A stretch of DNA of 64,000 nt. Source: Promethearchaeota archaeon (lineage in GTDB: Archaea > Asgardarchaeota > Lokiarchaeia > Sigyniarchaeales > SOKP01). A program made the translations under genes and the position numbers. Each line of letters opens with the position of its first letter. The first letter of the stretch is position 1. The stretch is taken from NCBI GenBank assembly GCA_030599585.1, contig JAUVNS010000005.1:256001-320000 (forward strand), read 5' to 3'. The notes below the pieces were generated by a model. That model was not told the DNA's origin. It worked only from the letters and a program-made list of their open reading frames with translations, and searched no databases. Below, one piece after another: positions 53,695-63,380 of this stretch.

Positions 53695-53728
53695 GGCCCG
53701 ATGCGAGAATTGAACTCGCCTCTAGGGA
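53695..53728 (-). repeat. isolated tRNA 3' half (probably tRNA-His), att-site duplication
   Basis: Reverse complement TCCCT-AGAG-GCGAG-TTCAATT-CTCGC-ATCGGGC-C gives T-arm, acceptor strand and C discriminator; no D-arm or 5' half upstream. Confidence 0.8.
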
Positions 53729-57229: not shown

Positions 57230-58390
57230 TTAAAACTCTTCCTCGTCTTCTTCAAATTCTTCTTCTGCTATTCTTGGGGCGAGATAGAAGGTTAAAGTTG
57301 TCTTGTTTAACTTCTTAAAAGACATATTAACTTTGAGGGGCGTATCGGTCTTGATTGAGAAAGCTATTTTTTCTTTTAGCTCTAAAATTGAGCAAAAATT
57401 TTTTACAACTTTTAGAAAAGATAACGAATACGATCCTTCACAATCTTTTTCTTCGAGTTTGTTAGTAAGAGTTAGTTTTTTGATTTTGTCTTGTTCTCGT
57501 TCAATTTCCAAAAGTAGTTCTTTCTCGTTGAAATTGAGGTCTACGAGGTCTTTCTTTTCGTATTCTATTTCAGAATTCCCTTGATTACTCGATTCCTTGA
57601 AGATTGTGCCTTGTAGGTTTACATTTATCTCCACAATTTCTGAGTAATACCCCAAATTCTTTATTAAGTCTTCGTAGTCGTCTTTGGTCATTTCAAACGT
57701 GTAAGGGAATACGAGATTATGTAAGGATCCAATAGAATTACCTTCCGGTTCGAAGTCTATGGTGAATAATGTTCTTTTAATAACCCTTTTTCTTTTAGGA
57801 GTGGTGAGGTTCATTTCAAGTAATTCTTCAGAAAAAATAAGTTGAACTTCCGAATTGTTGCTTGTGCATTTTAATTTGTTTTTAAAATCTTCAAGATTTA
57901 TCCCTACCTTACCGGTTCTATAACATTGATAAGTTTTGCTGCCAAAGATGATTTCCATAAGTCCGATTCTTGAGGGATCGGTTGTCACAATTATTACTCC
58001 CTCTTCGTTTAATTGGATTTGAATCTCGTCTACGAATGAGTTTAGTGCTTCTAAAAATTTGTATAGGTGGAACTGTGAAAAGGTTATTTGGGCGTACGCT
58101 TTCTTTATTACGATAAGTTCGAGGGTGGTCTTGAGATTCTTTAAGAAGTCTTTTTTCATTGAGTTGTTGTCGGTTTCTGGTAAAGGCGATTCTTCGAAAA
58201 TTTGGTCTAATCTGTTGTCTAAGTCTTGTTTAAACTCTTTTTTGAAGGTATTATTTTCGGAGTAAATCTCGGCTTTGGTAAGTCCAATACAATGAGTTTC
58301 TAGAACGGTTAATGCTTTCCTAATCTCGTCGTAGCTATTGCCTTTTTCGGCTAACTCCCCCCAGTTGTATTTTGGTTTGGTTTCGGTCAT
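57230..58390 (-). CDS. PCNA-like sliding clamp with about 95-aa N-terminal extension
   Basis: TDPSRIGLMEI, GINLEDF, YSLSFL, DTPLKV, FYLAPRI and acidic tail. Confidence 0.85.
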   Translation of the reverse strand: MTETKPKYNWGELAEKGNSYDEIRKALTVLETHCIGLTKAEIYSENNTFKKEFKQDLDNRLDQIFEESPLPETDNNSMKKDFLKNLKTTLELIVIKKAYAQITFSQFHLYKFLEALNSFVDEIQIQLNEEGVIIVTTDPSRIGLMEIIFGSKTYQCYRTGKVGINLEDFKNKLKCTSNNSEVQLIFSEELLEMNLTTPKRKRVIKRTLFTIDFEPEGNSIGSLHNLVFPYTFEMTKDDYEDLIKNLGYYSEIVEINVNLQGTIFKESSNQGNSEIEYEKKDLVDLNFNEKELLLEIEREQDKIKKLTLTNKLEEKDCEGSYSLSFLKVVKNFCSILELKEKIAFSIKTDTPLKVNMSFKKLNKTTLTFYLAPRIAEEEFEEDEEEF

Positions 58391-58560
58391 ATTAAATAGA
58401 AAGATGGTTCTAAATATAAATAGTTGGGGGCGTAAGATTTCTCAATGTTTCCAAAAAGTAAAATTACATCAGGTATGAAGTTCAAATTAATCTTTTGGTT
58501 CTCGTTCGTTTTTTGTCTCCTGTAGTAAAAGTAAAAATGGTAGGGTAGTTAGCTGTATTT

Positions 58561-59218
58561 TTTTCCAGTTTATTCTTCAAATTAATCCCTTTTTTCCAGC
58601 TTATTATTCAAATTTTTCCAGTTTATTTTTCAAAATGGAGATTTTTCTATAATTAATCGGATATTTTTTCAGAAATAAATTGGAAAATAGCAAAAATAGA
58701 TTGGAATTTTTCAGAAATAAAATGGAAAAAGTATGGTTGAGCCGTTAAACGAGCAATCTCCAAAAAAAGATAACTTTTTTCCAATTTATTATTGCAAAAA
58801 CGTAATTTTTTCCAACTTATTACTGCTATTTTTCCAAATTATTATTGCTAGAAAATTGTTTAAACTGTTTTTGTGGTAGTTCTGGGGCGATTTTTTTCCA
58901 ATTTATTATTGAAAATAACTTGTTCCTTGTAGTAAAATTTTTCCAGTTTTTTTTTCAAAATACAAATAGGAATTTTCCATAAATAACTGGAATTTTTCCA
59001 TAATAGATTGGAATTTTTCCATAAAAGACTGGAATTTTTTGGATAAAATTTTTAATCGAAATACTCGTTTTTATTGGTTTGTAATGCGCTAGCTTTTTTC
59101 TGCTAAATTTTGATAGTGATTTTTTTCCAGTTTATTTTTCAAAATTTCCAGTTTATTATTCAAAAAAATGTAATTTTTTCCAGCTTATTTTGGAAAATTT
59201 TCCAGTTTATTTTGAAAA
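58561..59218. repeat. array of about 18-20 short repeats (TTCCARYTTATTWTTCAAA-like) in alternating orientation; putative origin or partition site
   Basis: TTCCA at 58563, 58594, 58616, 58779, 58810, 58832, 58896, 58941, 59125, 59146, 59178, 59200; TGGAA at 58681, 58702, 58723, 58988, 59009, 59030. Confidence 0.85.
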
Positions 59219-59440
59219 ATTTGTGATCTGTCTAAGGAAAATAGAAGAATTAGAAGAGTCAGATTTTTCCGATAAAACCTTACTTTTTTAGAGTCTGTAT
59301 TTGATCTTTATGCGAAGCCTCTGTTATCTTCTGTTAGACTCTTCTAAACAAAGTAGCATTTTGATACATTTGTTTGCAATTGTGAACAAAGTGGTGAGTT
59401 TGTAGTAGAAATTTTACCTTAAAAAATTAAAAAAAAGGGT

Positions 59441-59853: not shown

Positions 59854-60462
59854 TCACTTCTCTAAAGATTTTTTTGATGTTAAAATGTAAGCTCCTTTCG
59901 AATTTAGAGGGGTTATTTGAGCGTAATTAGAAAAAATATCAAAAATCTCTTTCTTGGTAAAAAAATGTTGAAAAGTAGGTCGAGTAGTAATGTATCCGTC
60001 TTGAAATCTGATCCAATTGTCCTTTGCTTCGTATTTATCTTGCCGAACTCCAATTAACACAATGCTTTCATCTCTTAGGAATTTTAATAAAGTTTGAATG
60101 ACGGTCTCTCTGTCAATTTTGACTATAACATTTAACACGTAGTTGCATACTATCAAATCAAACGAATCGCGTAAAATTTGTTTGCTTGAGTTGTAGCCAA
60201 AATCTTTGTGAGGATCGTAGCCAATATAGAAAGGAAACTCTTCTTTTAAAGTATTTTCGTCTCGACCTTTACCACAACCGTAATCCAATACTATTCGAAT
60301 CTTACTCTTTATTTCAGGATTATCGTTTAACCACTTAAGAAAATCTTTAGTTGGGGAGGTTGTTCCGTTCGATTTGCCCAGAGCCGTCTTGTGATAATTT
60401 GATCGCAATAAATTGATAGTGTCGATCTCACTAAGCTTTTGAACTTGTTCTCGAACTTCCAT
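59854..60462 (-). CDS. class I SAM methyltransferase resembling the DNA phosphorothioation-associated methyltransferase domain
   Basis: HKTAL, VLDYGCGKGRD, GYDP, NYVLNVI, DGYITTRPTFQHFF. Confidence 0.78.
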   Translation of the reverse strand: MEVREQVQKLSEIDTINLLRSNYHKTALGKSNGTTSPTKDFLKWLNDNPEIKSKIRIVLDYGCGKGRDENTLKEEFPFYIGYDPHKDFGYNSSKQILRDSFDLIVCNYVLNVIVKIDRETVIQTLLKFLRDESIVLIGVRQDKYEAKDNWIRFQDGYITTRPTFQHFFTKKEIFDIFSNYAQITPLNSKGAYILTSKKSLEK

Positions 60463-60622
60463 AAAATATCAACTTATTTATATTTTGGTCGTTATTAAAA
60501 AAAAATAAAGATTTATTCGTCAATCCCTAATATTTTAAGGGCTTTTTAGTTATGTTTAATGCGTAAACTTGTCTATAAATAAAAATGGGGTGTTGTTAAT
60601 TACTAAATCACTTACATAGTTT

Positions 60623-60943
60623 TTATCCTTCAAGTACTTTAACCATTGTTTCGTTAGTGGGTTTTTCTTGTATCCCTAAAAAATATAGAATGTAGTGCAT
60701 TAATTCGTGATTAACGGTGGCAATCCATTTGTTTATGTCCAAGTCAGTCTTTCCACCCAGAAGCATAATAAGGTTGTTTTCAGGCTTTACAACTCCGTTG
60801 TATTTTTTAGGGGAATAACTGTAACCCGCAGAATCGAACTTAAATATTACAAACTCGTCGGTGTTGCGATCTTCTTCTTTTAATTCGTAAGGAATAATAT
60901 CGATGTTTTCAATTTCTATTGCTTTCTCATTTTCTTCAGTCAA
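60623..60943 (-). CDS. small HExxH zincin-like protein
   Basis: TVNHELMHYIL...NE; AGGTGA upstream of TTG. Confidence 0.6.
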   Translation of the reverse strand: MTEENEKAIEIENIDIIPYELKEEDRNTDEFVIFKFDSAGYSYSPKKYNGVVKPENNLIMLLGGKTDLDINKWIATVNHELMHYILYFLGIQEKPTNETMVKVLEG

Positions 60944-60957
60944 ATATGTTCACCTTG

Positions 60958-61914
60958 CTAGTATGTGCAAAATTTCTGGAATGGACAAATATCACACTTG
61001 GAATCTATCTTCTTACTGTTGCAAATTCCCATAATTCCCAACCTCGAAAGGTATAAATCTGCCCATAGCTTGTTTTGAGGGCTTATAAGTCTAAGGAAAT
61101 CTGAATACCTTGTTACATCTGCCCATTTGCAACCATACTCTCGGTCAAATATCCCGACTCGCTTAAGAACCCGTTTTACCGTAACATCTACCGGTGGTAG
61201 TAAGTCGTTGTGAGGGATAAAAGTCCATAGGTGTAGGTCTGGATCGAGTCCAACAACCCATCGAAAAAAGAGTAAATATCGTTTAAAACACTTCTGAGAT
61301 GTTAGTTTAGGAGTTCCGAATATTCGAGGTTCACCGCGAAAACTCTCGACAAATTTTACAACGAACTCAACGAAATTTTTTGACTCCTGATAGAGTTTTT
61401 TTGCGTTCTTTTCAAAAGATTGGTTCTCGTTTATAATTACTTTTAGCGTTTGTAAAATATATATGAGCTGGTATGTTTTTAAAATTCTGTGATGGCTCCA
61501 ACCGATTTGATTCACCTTTTTTCCGTCTTTACTTACCCATTGCCACTTAAAATTTGTGAGAAGAATTTTTTTTGAATGAACGTCGCTATTAAGAAAAGCG
61601 ATAAAATCTCCATCGTACAAAGTTATAATCGAATTGGCAATACCGTCTAACAAGGGGATCATAAACTTTTGGACTTTCACGGAAAAATTGATAATAGAGC
61701 AGAAAAAGGCCCATGCATCTCTACCGTTGTCTTCAGAAATTTTTTTAGTGCAGGATAGCACGCTGGTTTTTTCGGGGCTTATTCCTTGCGTTTTGGTGTG
61801 TTGCTCGACAAAAGAAACTAAATCGGTTCTTATAGTTATAAGTAGTTTTTCTAAGTTTTCCACGTTGGAAAATTTAGCCTTTACATCTTCAAGAGGTATT
61901 TCTTGCGAACTCAA
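60958..61914 (-). CDS. DUF2400-like HhH-GPD superfamily protein with EndoIII-type 4Fe-4S motif
   Basis: KRYLLFFRWVV, DLHLW, PVDVTVKRVLKRVG, C-x7-CDICPFQKFC. Confidence 0.75.
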   Translation of the reverse strand: MSSQEIPLEDVKAKFSNVENLEKLLITIRTDLVSFVEQHTKTQGISPEKTSVLSCTKKISEDNGRDAWAFFCSIINFSVKVQKFMIPLLDGIANSIITLYDGDFIAFLNSDVHSKKILLTNFKWQWVSKDGKKVNQIGWSHHRILKTYQLIYILQTLKVIINENQSFEKNAKKLYQESKNFVEFVVKFVESFRGEPRIFGTPKLTSQKCFKRYLLFFRWVVGLDPDLHLWTFIPHNDLLPPVDVTVKRVLKRVGIFDREYGCKWADVTRYSDFLRLISPQNKLWADLYLSRLGIMGICNSKKIDSKCDICPFQKFCTY

Positions 61915-62759
61915 TAGACTTTTCCCTCCTTCATCGTTTTAATTGCGTCCATTGGATACATAGGCAAAAAACCTTCGAAATATTGGTTTTTAAGGGCGAC
62001 TGGCATTTTCTCGCTTTGGAATATGGGGTTTTTCTTGCTGGAATTAATCTTCTTGATTACGGTGATATACTCCCAGAACTTGCGATTAGTATATCTTCCC
62101 CTAGCCTTGATGTGTTTCTCTAGAGACACGGGTTTTAATTCGGGCTTGATTTTGTTGTTCTCCAAGTTTAAAACGACTTCTTTAAAGTTTTTAGCTGAAG
62201 TAGAATACCCTTTCACCCCACCTTCTGGAATCTCGTAGATTAGCTTAAACGGTTTTCTTGCCCTTTCAAGTGCTTGTCTTAAGATAAAATAATGGTGAGT
62301 TCCTCCAATGTAGTAAATGTATTTACGTTTATGTTGCTTTCTTTTCACGATATTGAGCCAATTGGCTAATCTAATGGTAAATTCTGTCTCGTCTTGGATG
62401 GTTAAATCTTCGGGTGGGACGTTATAATCGGGGTGCTGTCCTTCTAAAGCGTATGGTACGATTGTAAGCGGTTCTGAAATTACTACTCGCTCAAAATCTT
62501 CGCATCGAGTAATTGCAGATAAAAATTGGTGGGTCGTACTGTGAGAAAACATCTTCTTACCGTATTTAGCACGAGTTTTGTTTGCACTAGCACAAGGAAG
62601 GCACACTAAAGGTTTTTTCTTGTGTGGAAGCCAATTTACTGCGTAGTTATACCACAATGTGTTTGCGACGGTAAAAAAAGATTGGTTGAACCCTGGCATT
62701 TCGGGTTTTTTCTTTAAGTTGTGTTTTTTTGGTCCTGTGATTTTTGTTTGATGACTCAT
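61911..62759 (-). CDS. ArcS/DUF5591-like protein (archaeosine-synthase-related domain)
   Basis: LPCASANK...FSHSTTH...VVISEPLTIVPYALE..HPDYNVPP. Confidence 0.7.
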   Translation of the reverse strand: MSHQTKITGPKKHNLKKKPEMPGFNQSFFTVANTLWYNYAVNWLPHKKKPLVCLPCASANKTRAKYGKKMFSHSTTHQFLSAITRCEDFERVVISEPLTIVPYALEGQHPDYNVPPEDLTIQDETEFTIRLANWLNIVKRKQHKRKYIYYIGGTHHYFILRQALERARKPFKLIYEIPEGGVKGYSTSAKNFKEVVLNLENNKIKPELKPVSLEKHIKARGRYTNRKFWEYITVIKKINSSKKNPIFQSEKMPVALKNQYFEGFLPMYPMDAIKTMKEGKVY

Positions 62760-62762
62760 AAT

Positions 62763-63380
62763 TTAAAATTCTCCCTCGCTGCTTGTTTTAATTTGGATAG
62801 GAATTTGTAATTGAGATGATTGCGATTCAAAGTTCCAAATACACTTGTTTTTGTTCTGGTAATGACAAAAATAACATGTTCGGGGATAATTATCTTCACC
62901 TTTGGAATAAACGCACTCAGCAACTCGAAATTTAGACAAATCTTCTAAGGTTTGAGGTCTTGTTAGTTCGTTGAGCTTGGCTATAAGAGAATAGTAGCCA
63001 AATATCCCTTTTTTATCGAATACTATCGAACATTTAGAATCTAGAATAGGCGAAATTACCTCTCGATACTTTTTCCCTAAGATAACTATAACCGTGTCGT
63101 AGGCTTTGTGTAGTTCCACGAGTCGATATAGACACTTTTCTTGCACTCGTTTGACGTCGGCTTTGGTACTGATTTTCATGTCGTAGGGATCGACCAGATC
63201 GTCCATAGTGAGCAAACCATACTTACCCGACAATATTCTTTGGTCAAATTCGTGCAGTTCTGAGAATTTCCTCACCATGCGAAAGAGTTGTCCGATATAA
63301 AATTCTCTGGCTGGGGCGGGGTGGGATAGCTTACTCTGAGAACAGCCATTGATTACCAAAACTTTGCGTAAACCCTCCAT
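62763..63380 (-). CDS. DUF6884-like protein with C-terminal Cys cluster
   Basis: GCSQSK..PAPAREFYIGQLF, ILSGKYGLL, PYD. Confidence 0.75.
   Translation of the reverse strand: MEGLRKVLVINGCSQSKLSHPAPAREFYIGQLFRMVRKFSELHEFDQRILSGKYGLLTMDDLVDPYDMKISTKADVKRVQEKCLYRLVELHKAYDTVIVILGKKYREVISPILDSKCSIVFDKKGIFGYYSLIAKLNELTRPQTLEDLSKFRVAECVYSKGEDNYPRTCYFCHYQNKNKCIWNFESQSSQLQIPIQIKTSSEGEF

Follow-up and report, generated by a model that had tools for sequence, protein, structure and literature searches.

The window analysed here is a stretch of 64,000 nucleotides from a Lokiarchaeial genome (C9:256001-320000 of the 4.85-Mb assembly G000, which is 100% complete and 8.9% contaminated; G, C and L numbers denote genomes, contigs and loci, and bare coordinates are those of the window), and it contains a cassette of five genes, all on the minus strand, borne by an integrated element. 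These genes encode a DUF6884 protein of 205 residues (gene 1, 63380-62763), a stand-alone ArcS core of the ArcS2 type (gene 2, DUF5591, 282 residues, 62759-61911), a DUF2400 protein of the HhH-GPD type (gene 3, 318 residues, TTG start, 61914-60958), a mini-protein with an HExxH motif, HELMH (gene 4, 106 residues, TTG start, 60943-60623), and a small class I methyltransferase dependent on S-adenosylmethionine (SAM) (gene 5, 202 residues, 60462-59854). The open reading frame (ORF) coordinates confirm the shared orientation and tight linkage given in a preliminary description of the window: a 3-nt gap lies between genes 1 and 2 and a 4-nt overlap between genes 2 and 3, followed by spacers of 14 nt (genes 3/4) and 160 nt (genes 4/5). 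All five frames are intact, and genes 1–3 are translationally coupled. Pfam recovered the three family assignments of that description, namely DUF6884 (E 7.6e-20), DUF5591 (E 1.4e-6; 28.6 bits against a cut-off of 26) and DUF2400 (E 1.2e-19, with an additional weak HhH-GPD match at E 0.03), as well as the class I methyltransferase (E 3.8e-10). For the HExxH gene, Pfam and profile scans gave at most weak metallopeptidase matches (E 0.015-0.04).

Gene 2 consists of the DUF5591 core alone, with no TGT (tRNA-guanine transglycosylase)-like, C2 or PUA domain, and ends in a C-terminal extension of ~80 residues. Its central motif runs P55-C56, an 8-residue insertion, and then F-S72-x-S-x-x-H77; across a 39-row alignment P55 and H77 are invariant and C56 is found in at least 90% of the rows. 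A structure search with the AlphaFold model (pLDDT 85.6) returned the archaeal ArcS protein AF0587 first (PDB 2q07; Z 12.1, root-mean-square deviation 3.3 over 138 residues) and YaaA second (Z 6.0), and comparison with viral models returned the ArcS2 of phage nt-1 and several DUF6884 proteins (E 1e-3 to 4e-2). The related folds that had been suggested for genes 1 and 2 are thus supported by the structure searches, with a weak sequence match besides (hhalign E 0.044). In a phage collection the sole matches to gene 2 were the ArcS2 genes of STSV1, STSV2 and STSV4, each of which stands beside a DpdA, the closest being STSV2_16 (30% identity, E 6e-5). When the stand-alone ArcS2 of phage nt-1 is co-expressed with DpdA2, the 7-cyano-7-deazaguanine nucleoside of DNA (dPreQ0) is converted to deoxyarchaeosine (dG+) (10.1101/2023.04.13.536721). 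In our tree gene 2 falls into a supported clade of 22 rows, made up of ArcS2 proteins from elements and separate from host ArcS, with DpdA-adjacent members scattered in and around this clade; its deep branches are long and unsure.

Because the host has an archaeal TGT (aTGT), a full ArcS and a radical SAM gene adjoining that ArcS, gene 2 might instead act on host tRNA, in the archaeosine pathway together with aTGT and RaSEA, and the ArcS of T. kodakarensis does accept minimal preQ0 substrates (PMC11298593). However the host ArcS is already complete (695 residues compared to 282 for gene 2, which scores 21.4 bits against the cut-off of 440 of model NF040592), gene 2 lacks the TGT-like and PUA RNA-binding domains, it separates from host ArcS in the tree, and the genes around it are directed at DNA, so that a tRNA role seems improbable in the extreme. 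A radical SAM gene on the element itself was set aside as an ArcS partner, as it is of the B12-binding type, unlike the gene adjacent to host ArcS.

Gene 1 probably has the DpdC/YaaA fold, and it carries the motifs CxxxK (C13-K17) and LSGKYG and a Cys-rich C-terminal tail. In PADLOC it matches the candidate system PDC-M57A (E 8.8e-17), on which our literature search found no paper, and it also matches DpdC (E 6.6e-6) across 55 residues (20-74). The Pfam family matched by DpdC is DUF6884 (PMC12235509); DpdC turns dPreQ0 into its amide derivative dADG independently of DpdA and DpdB (PMC10164549), and YfjM, a DUF6884 protein of B. subtilis, binds abasic and ribonucleotide lesions in DNA (PMC11701544). 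We propose that gene 1 encodes either a DpdC-like enzyme, predicted to tailor the nitrile of preQ0, or a DNA-lesion binder.

To place these genes in context we surveyed 161 Lokiarchaeia genomes. The ArcS2 clade is present in 5 and DUF2400 in 3 of them, a distribution that marks both as accessory genes, while DUF6884 is found in 24. In 8 of these 24 no more than 30 nt separate DUF6884 from a TGT/DpdA gene, and the partners are of two unrelated types. The first is a clear DpdA (PADLOC E 4.5e-70), found in five genomes of the host genus which, being kin, we count as one event; at five loci of the genus (L121, L122, L130, L131 and L098, from G015, G035, G022, G006 and G001) a bacterial-type DpdA is convergent with DUF6884. 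The second is a TGT subfamily (42-60% identity) which adjoins DUF6884 in G044, G158 and G016, and which abuts a stand-alone ArcS2 in L021 and L046. The strongest reason to think that DUF6884 and ArcS2 both work on an inserted 7-deazaguanine is that they alternate beside the same transglycosylase. In G016 (C13:22700-44000; L114/L115) DUF6884 and TGT lie together with QueC, queD/queE-like ORFs, two methyltransferases and large uncharacterised proteins, and by its gene content this region resembles a complete deazaguanine defence island within the host genus.

With about as much confidence as doubt, we interpret the cassette as the orphan tailoring half of a 7-deazaguanine DNA-modification module whose DpdA is supplied in trans or has been lost. 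This interpretation is built on homology, folds, motifs, gene neighbourhoods and the failure to find a DpdA in the assembly, and from these we infer all of the chemistry, that DNA is the substrate and that the genes cooperate. The link to 7-deazaguanines drawn in the preliminary description is supported, and more strongly than the sequence alone could show, since DpdC falls in DUF6884 in Pfam and DUF6884 genes adjoin DpdA/TGT genes in relatives; a self-contained five-gene pathway is not supported. Nor is the base-exchange activity that had been considered for the cluster, as no transglycosylase was found among its genes and the host tRNA enzyme alone in the assembly; as far as is visible, therefore, the cassette cannot exchange bases by itself.

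Several observations weigh against this interpretation. No DpdA of any tested type was found in G000 with PF01702, PF23859, PF20314 or three custom hidden Markov models (HMMs), and DpdA4, DndB/DpdB (PF14072), QueC and QueD were likewise not found in the assembly; the earlier statement that no DpdA/TGT or dnd genes were visible consequently extends to the remainder of the contig and, within the searches made, to the whole assembly apart from the host aTGT, and the preQ0-synthesis genes queC and queD that might have lain beyond the window did not turn up. In eight other long ArcS2 loci (L035, L052, L056, L057, L062, L063, L067 and L149) the fetched flanks, which the elements exceed, contained no DpdA. 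The ArcS motif PC-x3-KPY-x2-S-x2-H is altered in gene 2 by the 8-residue insertion, with KPY replaced and Y changed to F/I, and STSV2 DNA carries the carboxy derivative dCDG, not dG+ (10.1101/2023.04.13.536721). Among the 24 DUF6884-bearing genomes 16 lack an adjacent TGT, and the five cases from the host genus form one kin group; furthermore, the DUF6884 protein YfjM binds DNA lesions. A hidden DpdA candidate at C21:6890-7315 (E 0.005-0.06) was rejected as a 141-residue ORF without TGT motifs. The 7-deazaguanine enzymes of G000 thus come to the host tRNA aTGT and the full ArcS, with nothing more found; in the other genomes of the host genus QueC is patchy (14 of 24).

Closer to gene 2, transglycosylase-like partners do occur. 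Within its clade, TGT/DpdA-like genes lie no more than 2 kb from ArcS2 in L032, L033, L038 and L041, and in L032 and L033 a TGT gene stands just downstream. The proteins of L038, L041 and L054 are Pfam-negative and carry the TGT motif series, with leave-one-out E-values of 1e-7 to 1e-10 and an hhalign probability of 80% to TGT/DpdA, and their HMM recovers the enzymes of G016 and G015 (E ~1e-6). Compared to long TGTs, however, L041 alone clearly beats shuffled sequences and L038 does not, which also tells against our interpretation: support for calling these proteins DpdA-like is moderate. Together they suggest a short TGT/DpdA-like family, missed by both Pfam and PADLOC (L038:4068-4862, L041:2901-3644, L054:7000-8124 and L073:10001-10795), which occurs on Lokiarchaeal elements, often beside methyltransferases or ArcS2. 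It was not found in the 161 class genomes, which contain no positive control for it.

Gene 3 ends in a cluster, Cys298-x8-Cys307-x2-Cys310-x5-Cys316, which agrees with the four-Cys cluster described before and is invariant in 10 homologues and kept at ~30% identity. Also invariant is D243, in a PVD segment at the position of the catalytic Asp of EndoIII/MutY. Profile matches to glycosylases are weak (E 0.01-0.03; mutY, E 0.024 over residues 240-317), and the fold model is of low confidence (pLDDT 54.8), with OGG, Mag2 and EndoIII returned by Foldseek at E about 1-2. Neighbours in the Atlas, which serve as leads only, were HhH-GPD (score 0.90) and AGOG/Q_salvage clusters (0.85-0.87). The PDB sequence search was uninformative, the literature search gave no informative paper on DUF2400, and no relatives were found in viral contigs.

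The main rival account is that the element carries a base-excision and end-repair kit: DUF2400 would be a glycosylase, the DUF6884 and DUF5591 proteins would bind lesions or abasic sites, and the PNKP, NAD ligase, HAD phosphatase and PCNA of the element would complete the repair of, for example, nicks made by host defences. Consistent with this, the element does encode a NAD ligase, a PNK 3'-phosphatase, a HAD protein and PCNA, all of which are retained in relatives; in DUF2400 the Asp of HhH-GPD proteins and the cysteines for Fe-S are conserved, YfjM sets a precedent for lesion binding, and no DpdA was found in the assembly. Repair leaves unexplained, however, why DUF6884 and ArcS2 alternate beside one TGT subfamily and why ArcS2 retains its catalytic Cys and SxxH, and no repair role for DUF5591 is described in the literature searched. 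We regard such a kit as possible though not probable.

Relatives of gene 3 with ~30% identity carry an additional C-terminal domain of ~110 residues with a D...VEVE...GQ...Y pattern (L112:15872-17149 in G044, L144:9639-10946 in G275 and L145:8911-10281 in G274). We take this pattern to be typical of PD-(D/E)XK nucleases, and the domain itself had no profile or Pfam match. Judged by their sequences, these DUF2400-[4Fe-4S] fusions are a candidate family of modification- or damage-dependent nucleases. The DUF2400 protein of the window and the other element copies stop at the Cys cluster and lack the nuclease-like domain. Nuclease-fused relatives in chromosomal islands and nuclease-less copies on elements together suggest that DUF2400 is a base-reading module. 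In L054 and G044 the DUF2400, DpdA-like and DUF6884-like genes lie within ~6 and 11 kb, and the G044 copy belongs to an island that also contains genes for HerA, a STAND-like ATPase and TGT.

The preliminary description had also raised a modification-sensing defence module, and in that case, or in superinfection exclusion, DUF2400 would read modified bases in invading DNA with the PDC-M57A-like DUF6884 protein as effector. The PADLOC match of gene 1 to PDC-M57A, the nuclease-like domain in G044, G274 and G275 and the setting of the G044 copy all speak for it, and for DUF2400 taken alone the nuclease-fused relatives make sensing conceivable. In the window, though, DUF2400 ends at its Fe-S cluster, the cassette contains no nuclease, ATPase or other effector, and the other four genes match no PADLOC model beyond a weak methyltransferase match; as a function of this cassette, sensing is very unlikely.

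A further claim was that gene 5 has the motif series of phosphorothioation-associated methyltransferases. Gene 5 is a class I methyltransferase, but the specific type is not upheld, as TIGR04096 scores 52.7 bits against a cut-off of 150 and aligns over 112 of its 478 positions (31-142). With this score far under the cut-off and neither dndC nor dndB found in the assembly, we reject a phosphorothioate link.

We then asked how far the gene order is conserved. The search for co-occurring neighbours was positive: DUF6884 adjoins ArcS2 in L023, L024, L025, L027, L065 and C10, and ArcS2 adjoins DUF2400 in L019, L023, L026, L027, L060 and L066. The methyltransferase gene directly follows DUF2400 in L027 (95% identity) and in contigs of runs X3 and X8, from two other studies, which run from 60473 straight to ~60960 and thus skip the HExxH gene. 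This gene is also absent in L027, L019 and every relative with a readable junction, and has no homologue in any fetched locus from other genomes; by these alignments it is a private insertion of the window copy, outside the conserved unit. G004 lacks both the methyltransferase and the HExxH gene. The recurring unit in this lineage, as read largely from partial or short contigs, is DUF6884-ArcS2-DUF2400-(methyltransferase). In L027 (1353-2699; P0018, 9 member sequences) an in-frame deletion has joined the core of ArcS2 and DUF2400, and the ArcS2 part has a frameshift near codon 33.

The three-gene order is confined to relatives above ~65% identity, and in distant elements (ArcS2 40-50% identity) DUF2400 and this methyltransferase are absent. 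Together with the private HExxH gene and the missing methyltransferase of G004, this led us to reject a self-contained five-gene system. The same limits would be expected if the cassette were a loose string of accessory genes that share no function, placed in a variable part of a decaying element and with an order inherited in a single lineage: many copies are deletion remnants (on C10 and in L060, L065, L066 and L147) and distant ArcS2 relatives have unrelated neighbours. Yet five intact frames and the coupling of genes 1–3 sit poorly with decay, and the partnership of ArcS2 with DUF6884 reaches further than the lineage. In the distant elements L035 and L057 ArcS2 lies within ~1 kb of DUF6884, and in L030/L032, L033, L067, L068 and L078 it stands beside a divergent family of 150 residues which, by its hhalign match to DUF6884 (probability 38.5%, E 3e-4), is with moderate support DUF6884-like. 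A string without joint function therefore appears to us rather unlikely. One such element-type pair, in L068 (1-8846), is located 5 kb away from the host ArcS gene and the radical SAM gene beside it, where it probably inserted by chance.

The preliminary description also placed the cassette in an integrated element, and this is supported. The element starts at an att-like, GC-rich island resembling the 3' half of a tRNA (53695-53728, minus strand, outside the cassette), which comprises a T-arm and an acceptor strand, and it extends for at least 28 kb. A contig from the source run bridges this left junction at even depth, and in run X3 the summed contig depth falls sharply there. No full tRNA in the assembly matches the island, which differs from the tRNA-His on C24; neither an integrase nor a second att site was identified for the element, and at its end the contig continues in branches to C12, C32 or C10. 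On C24 that tRNA-His is flanked by a leucine-rich repeat (LRR) gene and a C-terminal remnant of DUF2400, and the LRR gene and tRNA-His adjoin a single ORF of 13,847 codons (C24:357277-398820). Besides the cassette, the element encodes ArdC-like, LRR, B12-binding radical SAM, helix-turn-helix, ParB-like and mTERF-repeat proteins alongside its PCNA, NAD ligase, PNK and HAD genes and a repeat array. Upstream of the cassette lies a 363-residue ORF with no Pfam or Atlas match. Proteins with mTERF repeats (Pfam E 1.7e-27) are found on or near the element (L002:6219-7916, and C35:89826-91454 of G000).

The repeat array is an ORF-free stretch of TTTTCCAGTTTATT-like repeats at 58552-59223 (L001 4552-5223; no strand assigned), spaced ~21-22 and 31-32 nt apart; it lies beside the PCNA gene of the element and looks origin- or centromere-like. 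The array shows orientation switches, with similar sequence at C35:74069-74242 and C28:114623-114686. The PCNA (57230-58390) has 386 residues including an N-terminal extension and is of the same length in L147/L148 (72% identity). On C10 there is a second copy of the element, in which DUF6884 is retained but everything after the first dozen codons of ArcS2 is lost, and further partial copies with ligase, PNK and DUF6884 genes occur in G000 (C10:5254-15823, C52:45378-47706 and C32:157547-158492). Since the first part of C10 repeats the last part of C9 at ~87% identity, a second strain or contamination is possible. Records from which the cassette homologues derive are of Promethearchaeota/Lokiarchaeia.

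Taking the cassette as a tailoring half-module, we envisage that a DpdA-type transglycosylase, absent from this copy, would swap a guanine in DNA for preQ0, whose nitrile ArcS2 would attack, like the enzyme of nt-1, to give dG+ or an amidine/lysyl derivative. DUF6884, as a paralogue with the DpdC fold, might hydrate the nitrile to dADG or bind the marked base, the nuclease-less Fe-S HhH protein DUF2400 might recognise or excise modified or mispaired bases, and the methyltransferase would add an ordinary methyl mark. The element may borrow the DpdA of those hosts that have one, as five genomes of the host genus do, or may have lost its own; the cassette is probably idle in the present host, and its likely benefit would be protection from restriction. 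A bolder version, which we consider unlikely, makes the element a modification parasite that rewrites the preQ0 marks of a host DpdA to dG+ or dADG with two paralogous enzymes, while its nuclease-less DUF2400 covers or removes the marks read by a DUF2400-[4Fe-4S]-PD-(D/E)XK nuclease. If true, this would be a counter-defence strategy, and the nuclease a defence family, not described in the literature searched.

If the half-module interpretation is correct, mobile elements and defence islands in Lokiarchaeia, which are close prokaryotic relatives of eukaryotes, would use 7-deazaguanine DNA marking, and tailoring could travel separately from base exchange. The comparisons connect three DUFs with chemistry that can be tested: DUF6884 and DUF5591 with a shared fold and interchangeable beside one TGT subfamily, and DUF2400 as a proposed Fe-S base reader with a nuclease-like fusion in other Asgard genomes. 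The divergent short DpdA-like family is also brought to notice. As characterised relatives exist for the parts, and as the copy here is incomplete, these results extend known biology and do not overturn it.

Comparison with described systems places the cassette near several of them. With EndoIII/MutY, DUF2400 shares a PVDxxVKRVLxRxG segment and the C-terminal four-Cys cluster; however, its Cys spacing is x8-x2-x5, compared to x6-x2-x5 in EndoIII, there is no clear HhH Lys, and its relatives are nuclease-fused. Gene 1 has the same fold as YaaA (DUF328) and YfjM (DUF6884), with CxxxK and LSxKYG, from which gene 2 is more distant (Z 6.0), and differs in that its partners here, on a mobile element, are ArcS2 and DUF2400. 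Archaeal tRNA ArcS, which works with aTGT and RaSEA, has the core fold of gene 2 with its Cys and SxxH, whereas gene 2 lacks the accessory domains, is element-borne and patchy, and coexists with the host's own ArcS. The Dnd phosphorothioation system would need dndC and dndB, which were not found in this assembly, and gene 5 is not a full-length match to its methyltransferase model. The closest annotated DUF6884 (39% identity) is on the Asgard plasmid P-10H_0 (LC711081), beside DNA methyltransferases and a glycosylase/lyase; this plasmid also has PCNA and TFIIB genes, BLAST shows PCNA and DUF6884 alone to be shared with the element, no ArcS2, DUF2400 or TGT was detected on it, and the literature search found no paper on it. 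The BREX-related capture (BRC) system includes TGT, PglZ, a DUF6079 ATPase, HerA/FtsK and a STAND NTPase (10.1101/2025.10.09.681413). PglZ, the DUF6079 ATPase, HerA/FtsK and the STAND NTPase were all absent from the element ORFs scanned, and HerA, a STAND-like ATPase and TGT occur together in the G044 island only.

The closest parallels are the 7-deazaguanine systems themselves, although we found no paper describing the combination of DUF6884, DUF5591 and DUF2400. Gene 1 matches PADLOC DpdC, from the DpdABC system of Salmonella Montevideo, at the N-terminal motif, and among relatives of the host DUF6884 genes stand directly beside a true DpdA; the match is short, gene 1 having 205 residues compared to ~310 model positions. 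Dpd as described contains no ArcS2 or DUF2400, and no DpdA or DpdB/DndB was found here; DpdD-K restriction genes were absent among the element ORFs scanned in Pfam (PADLOC covered the cassette alone and the genome was not searched), and the weak ParB-like gene 11 kb upstream is unrelated to DpdB. The viral pairs of DpdA and ArcS2, in Vibrio phage nt-1 and in STSV2 (STSV2_15 and STSV2_16), have the same stand-alone DUF5591 core with PC...SxxH on a mobile element, whereas our element lacks DpdA and its gene 2 has the 8-residue insertion and the ~80-residue extension. STSV2 has no DUF6884 or DUF2400 in the 12 kb examined, and the ArcS2 of the window is coupled to both; L033 repeats the STSV2-type layout of thymidylate synthase, ArcS2 and TGT. 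With no DpdA found, the cassette is a member of neither the viral pairs nor DpdABC, and what it resembles is the second step of both.

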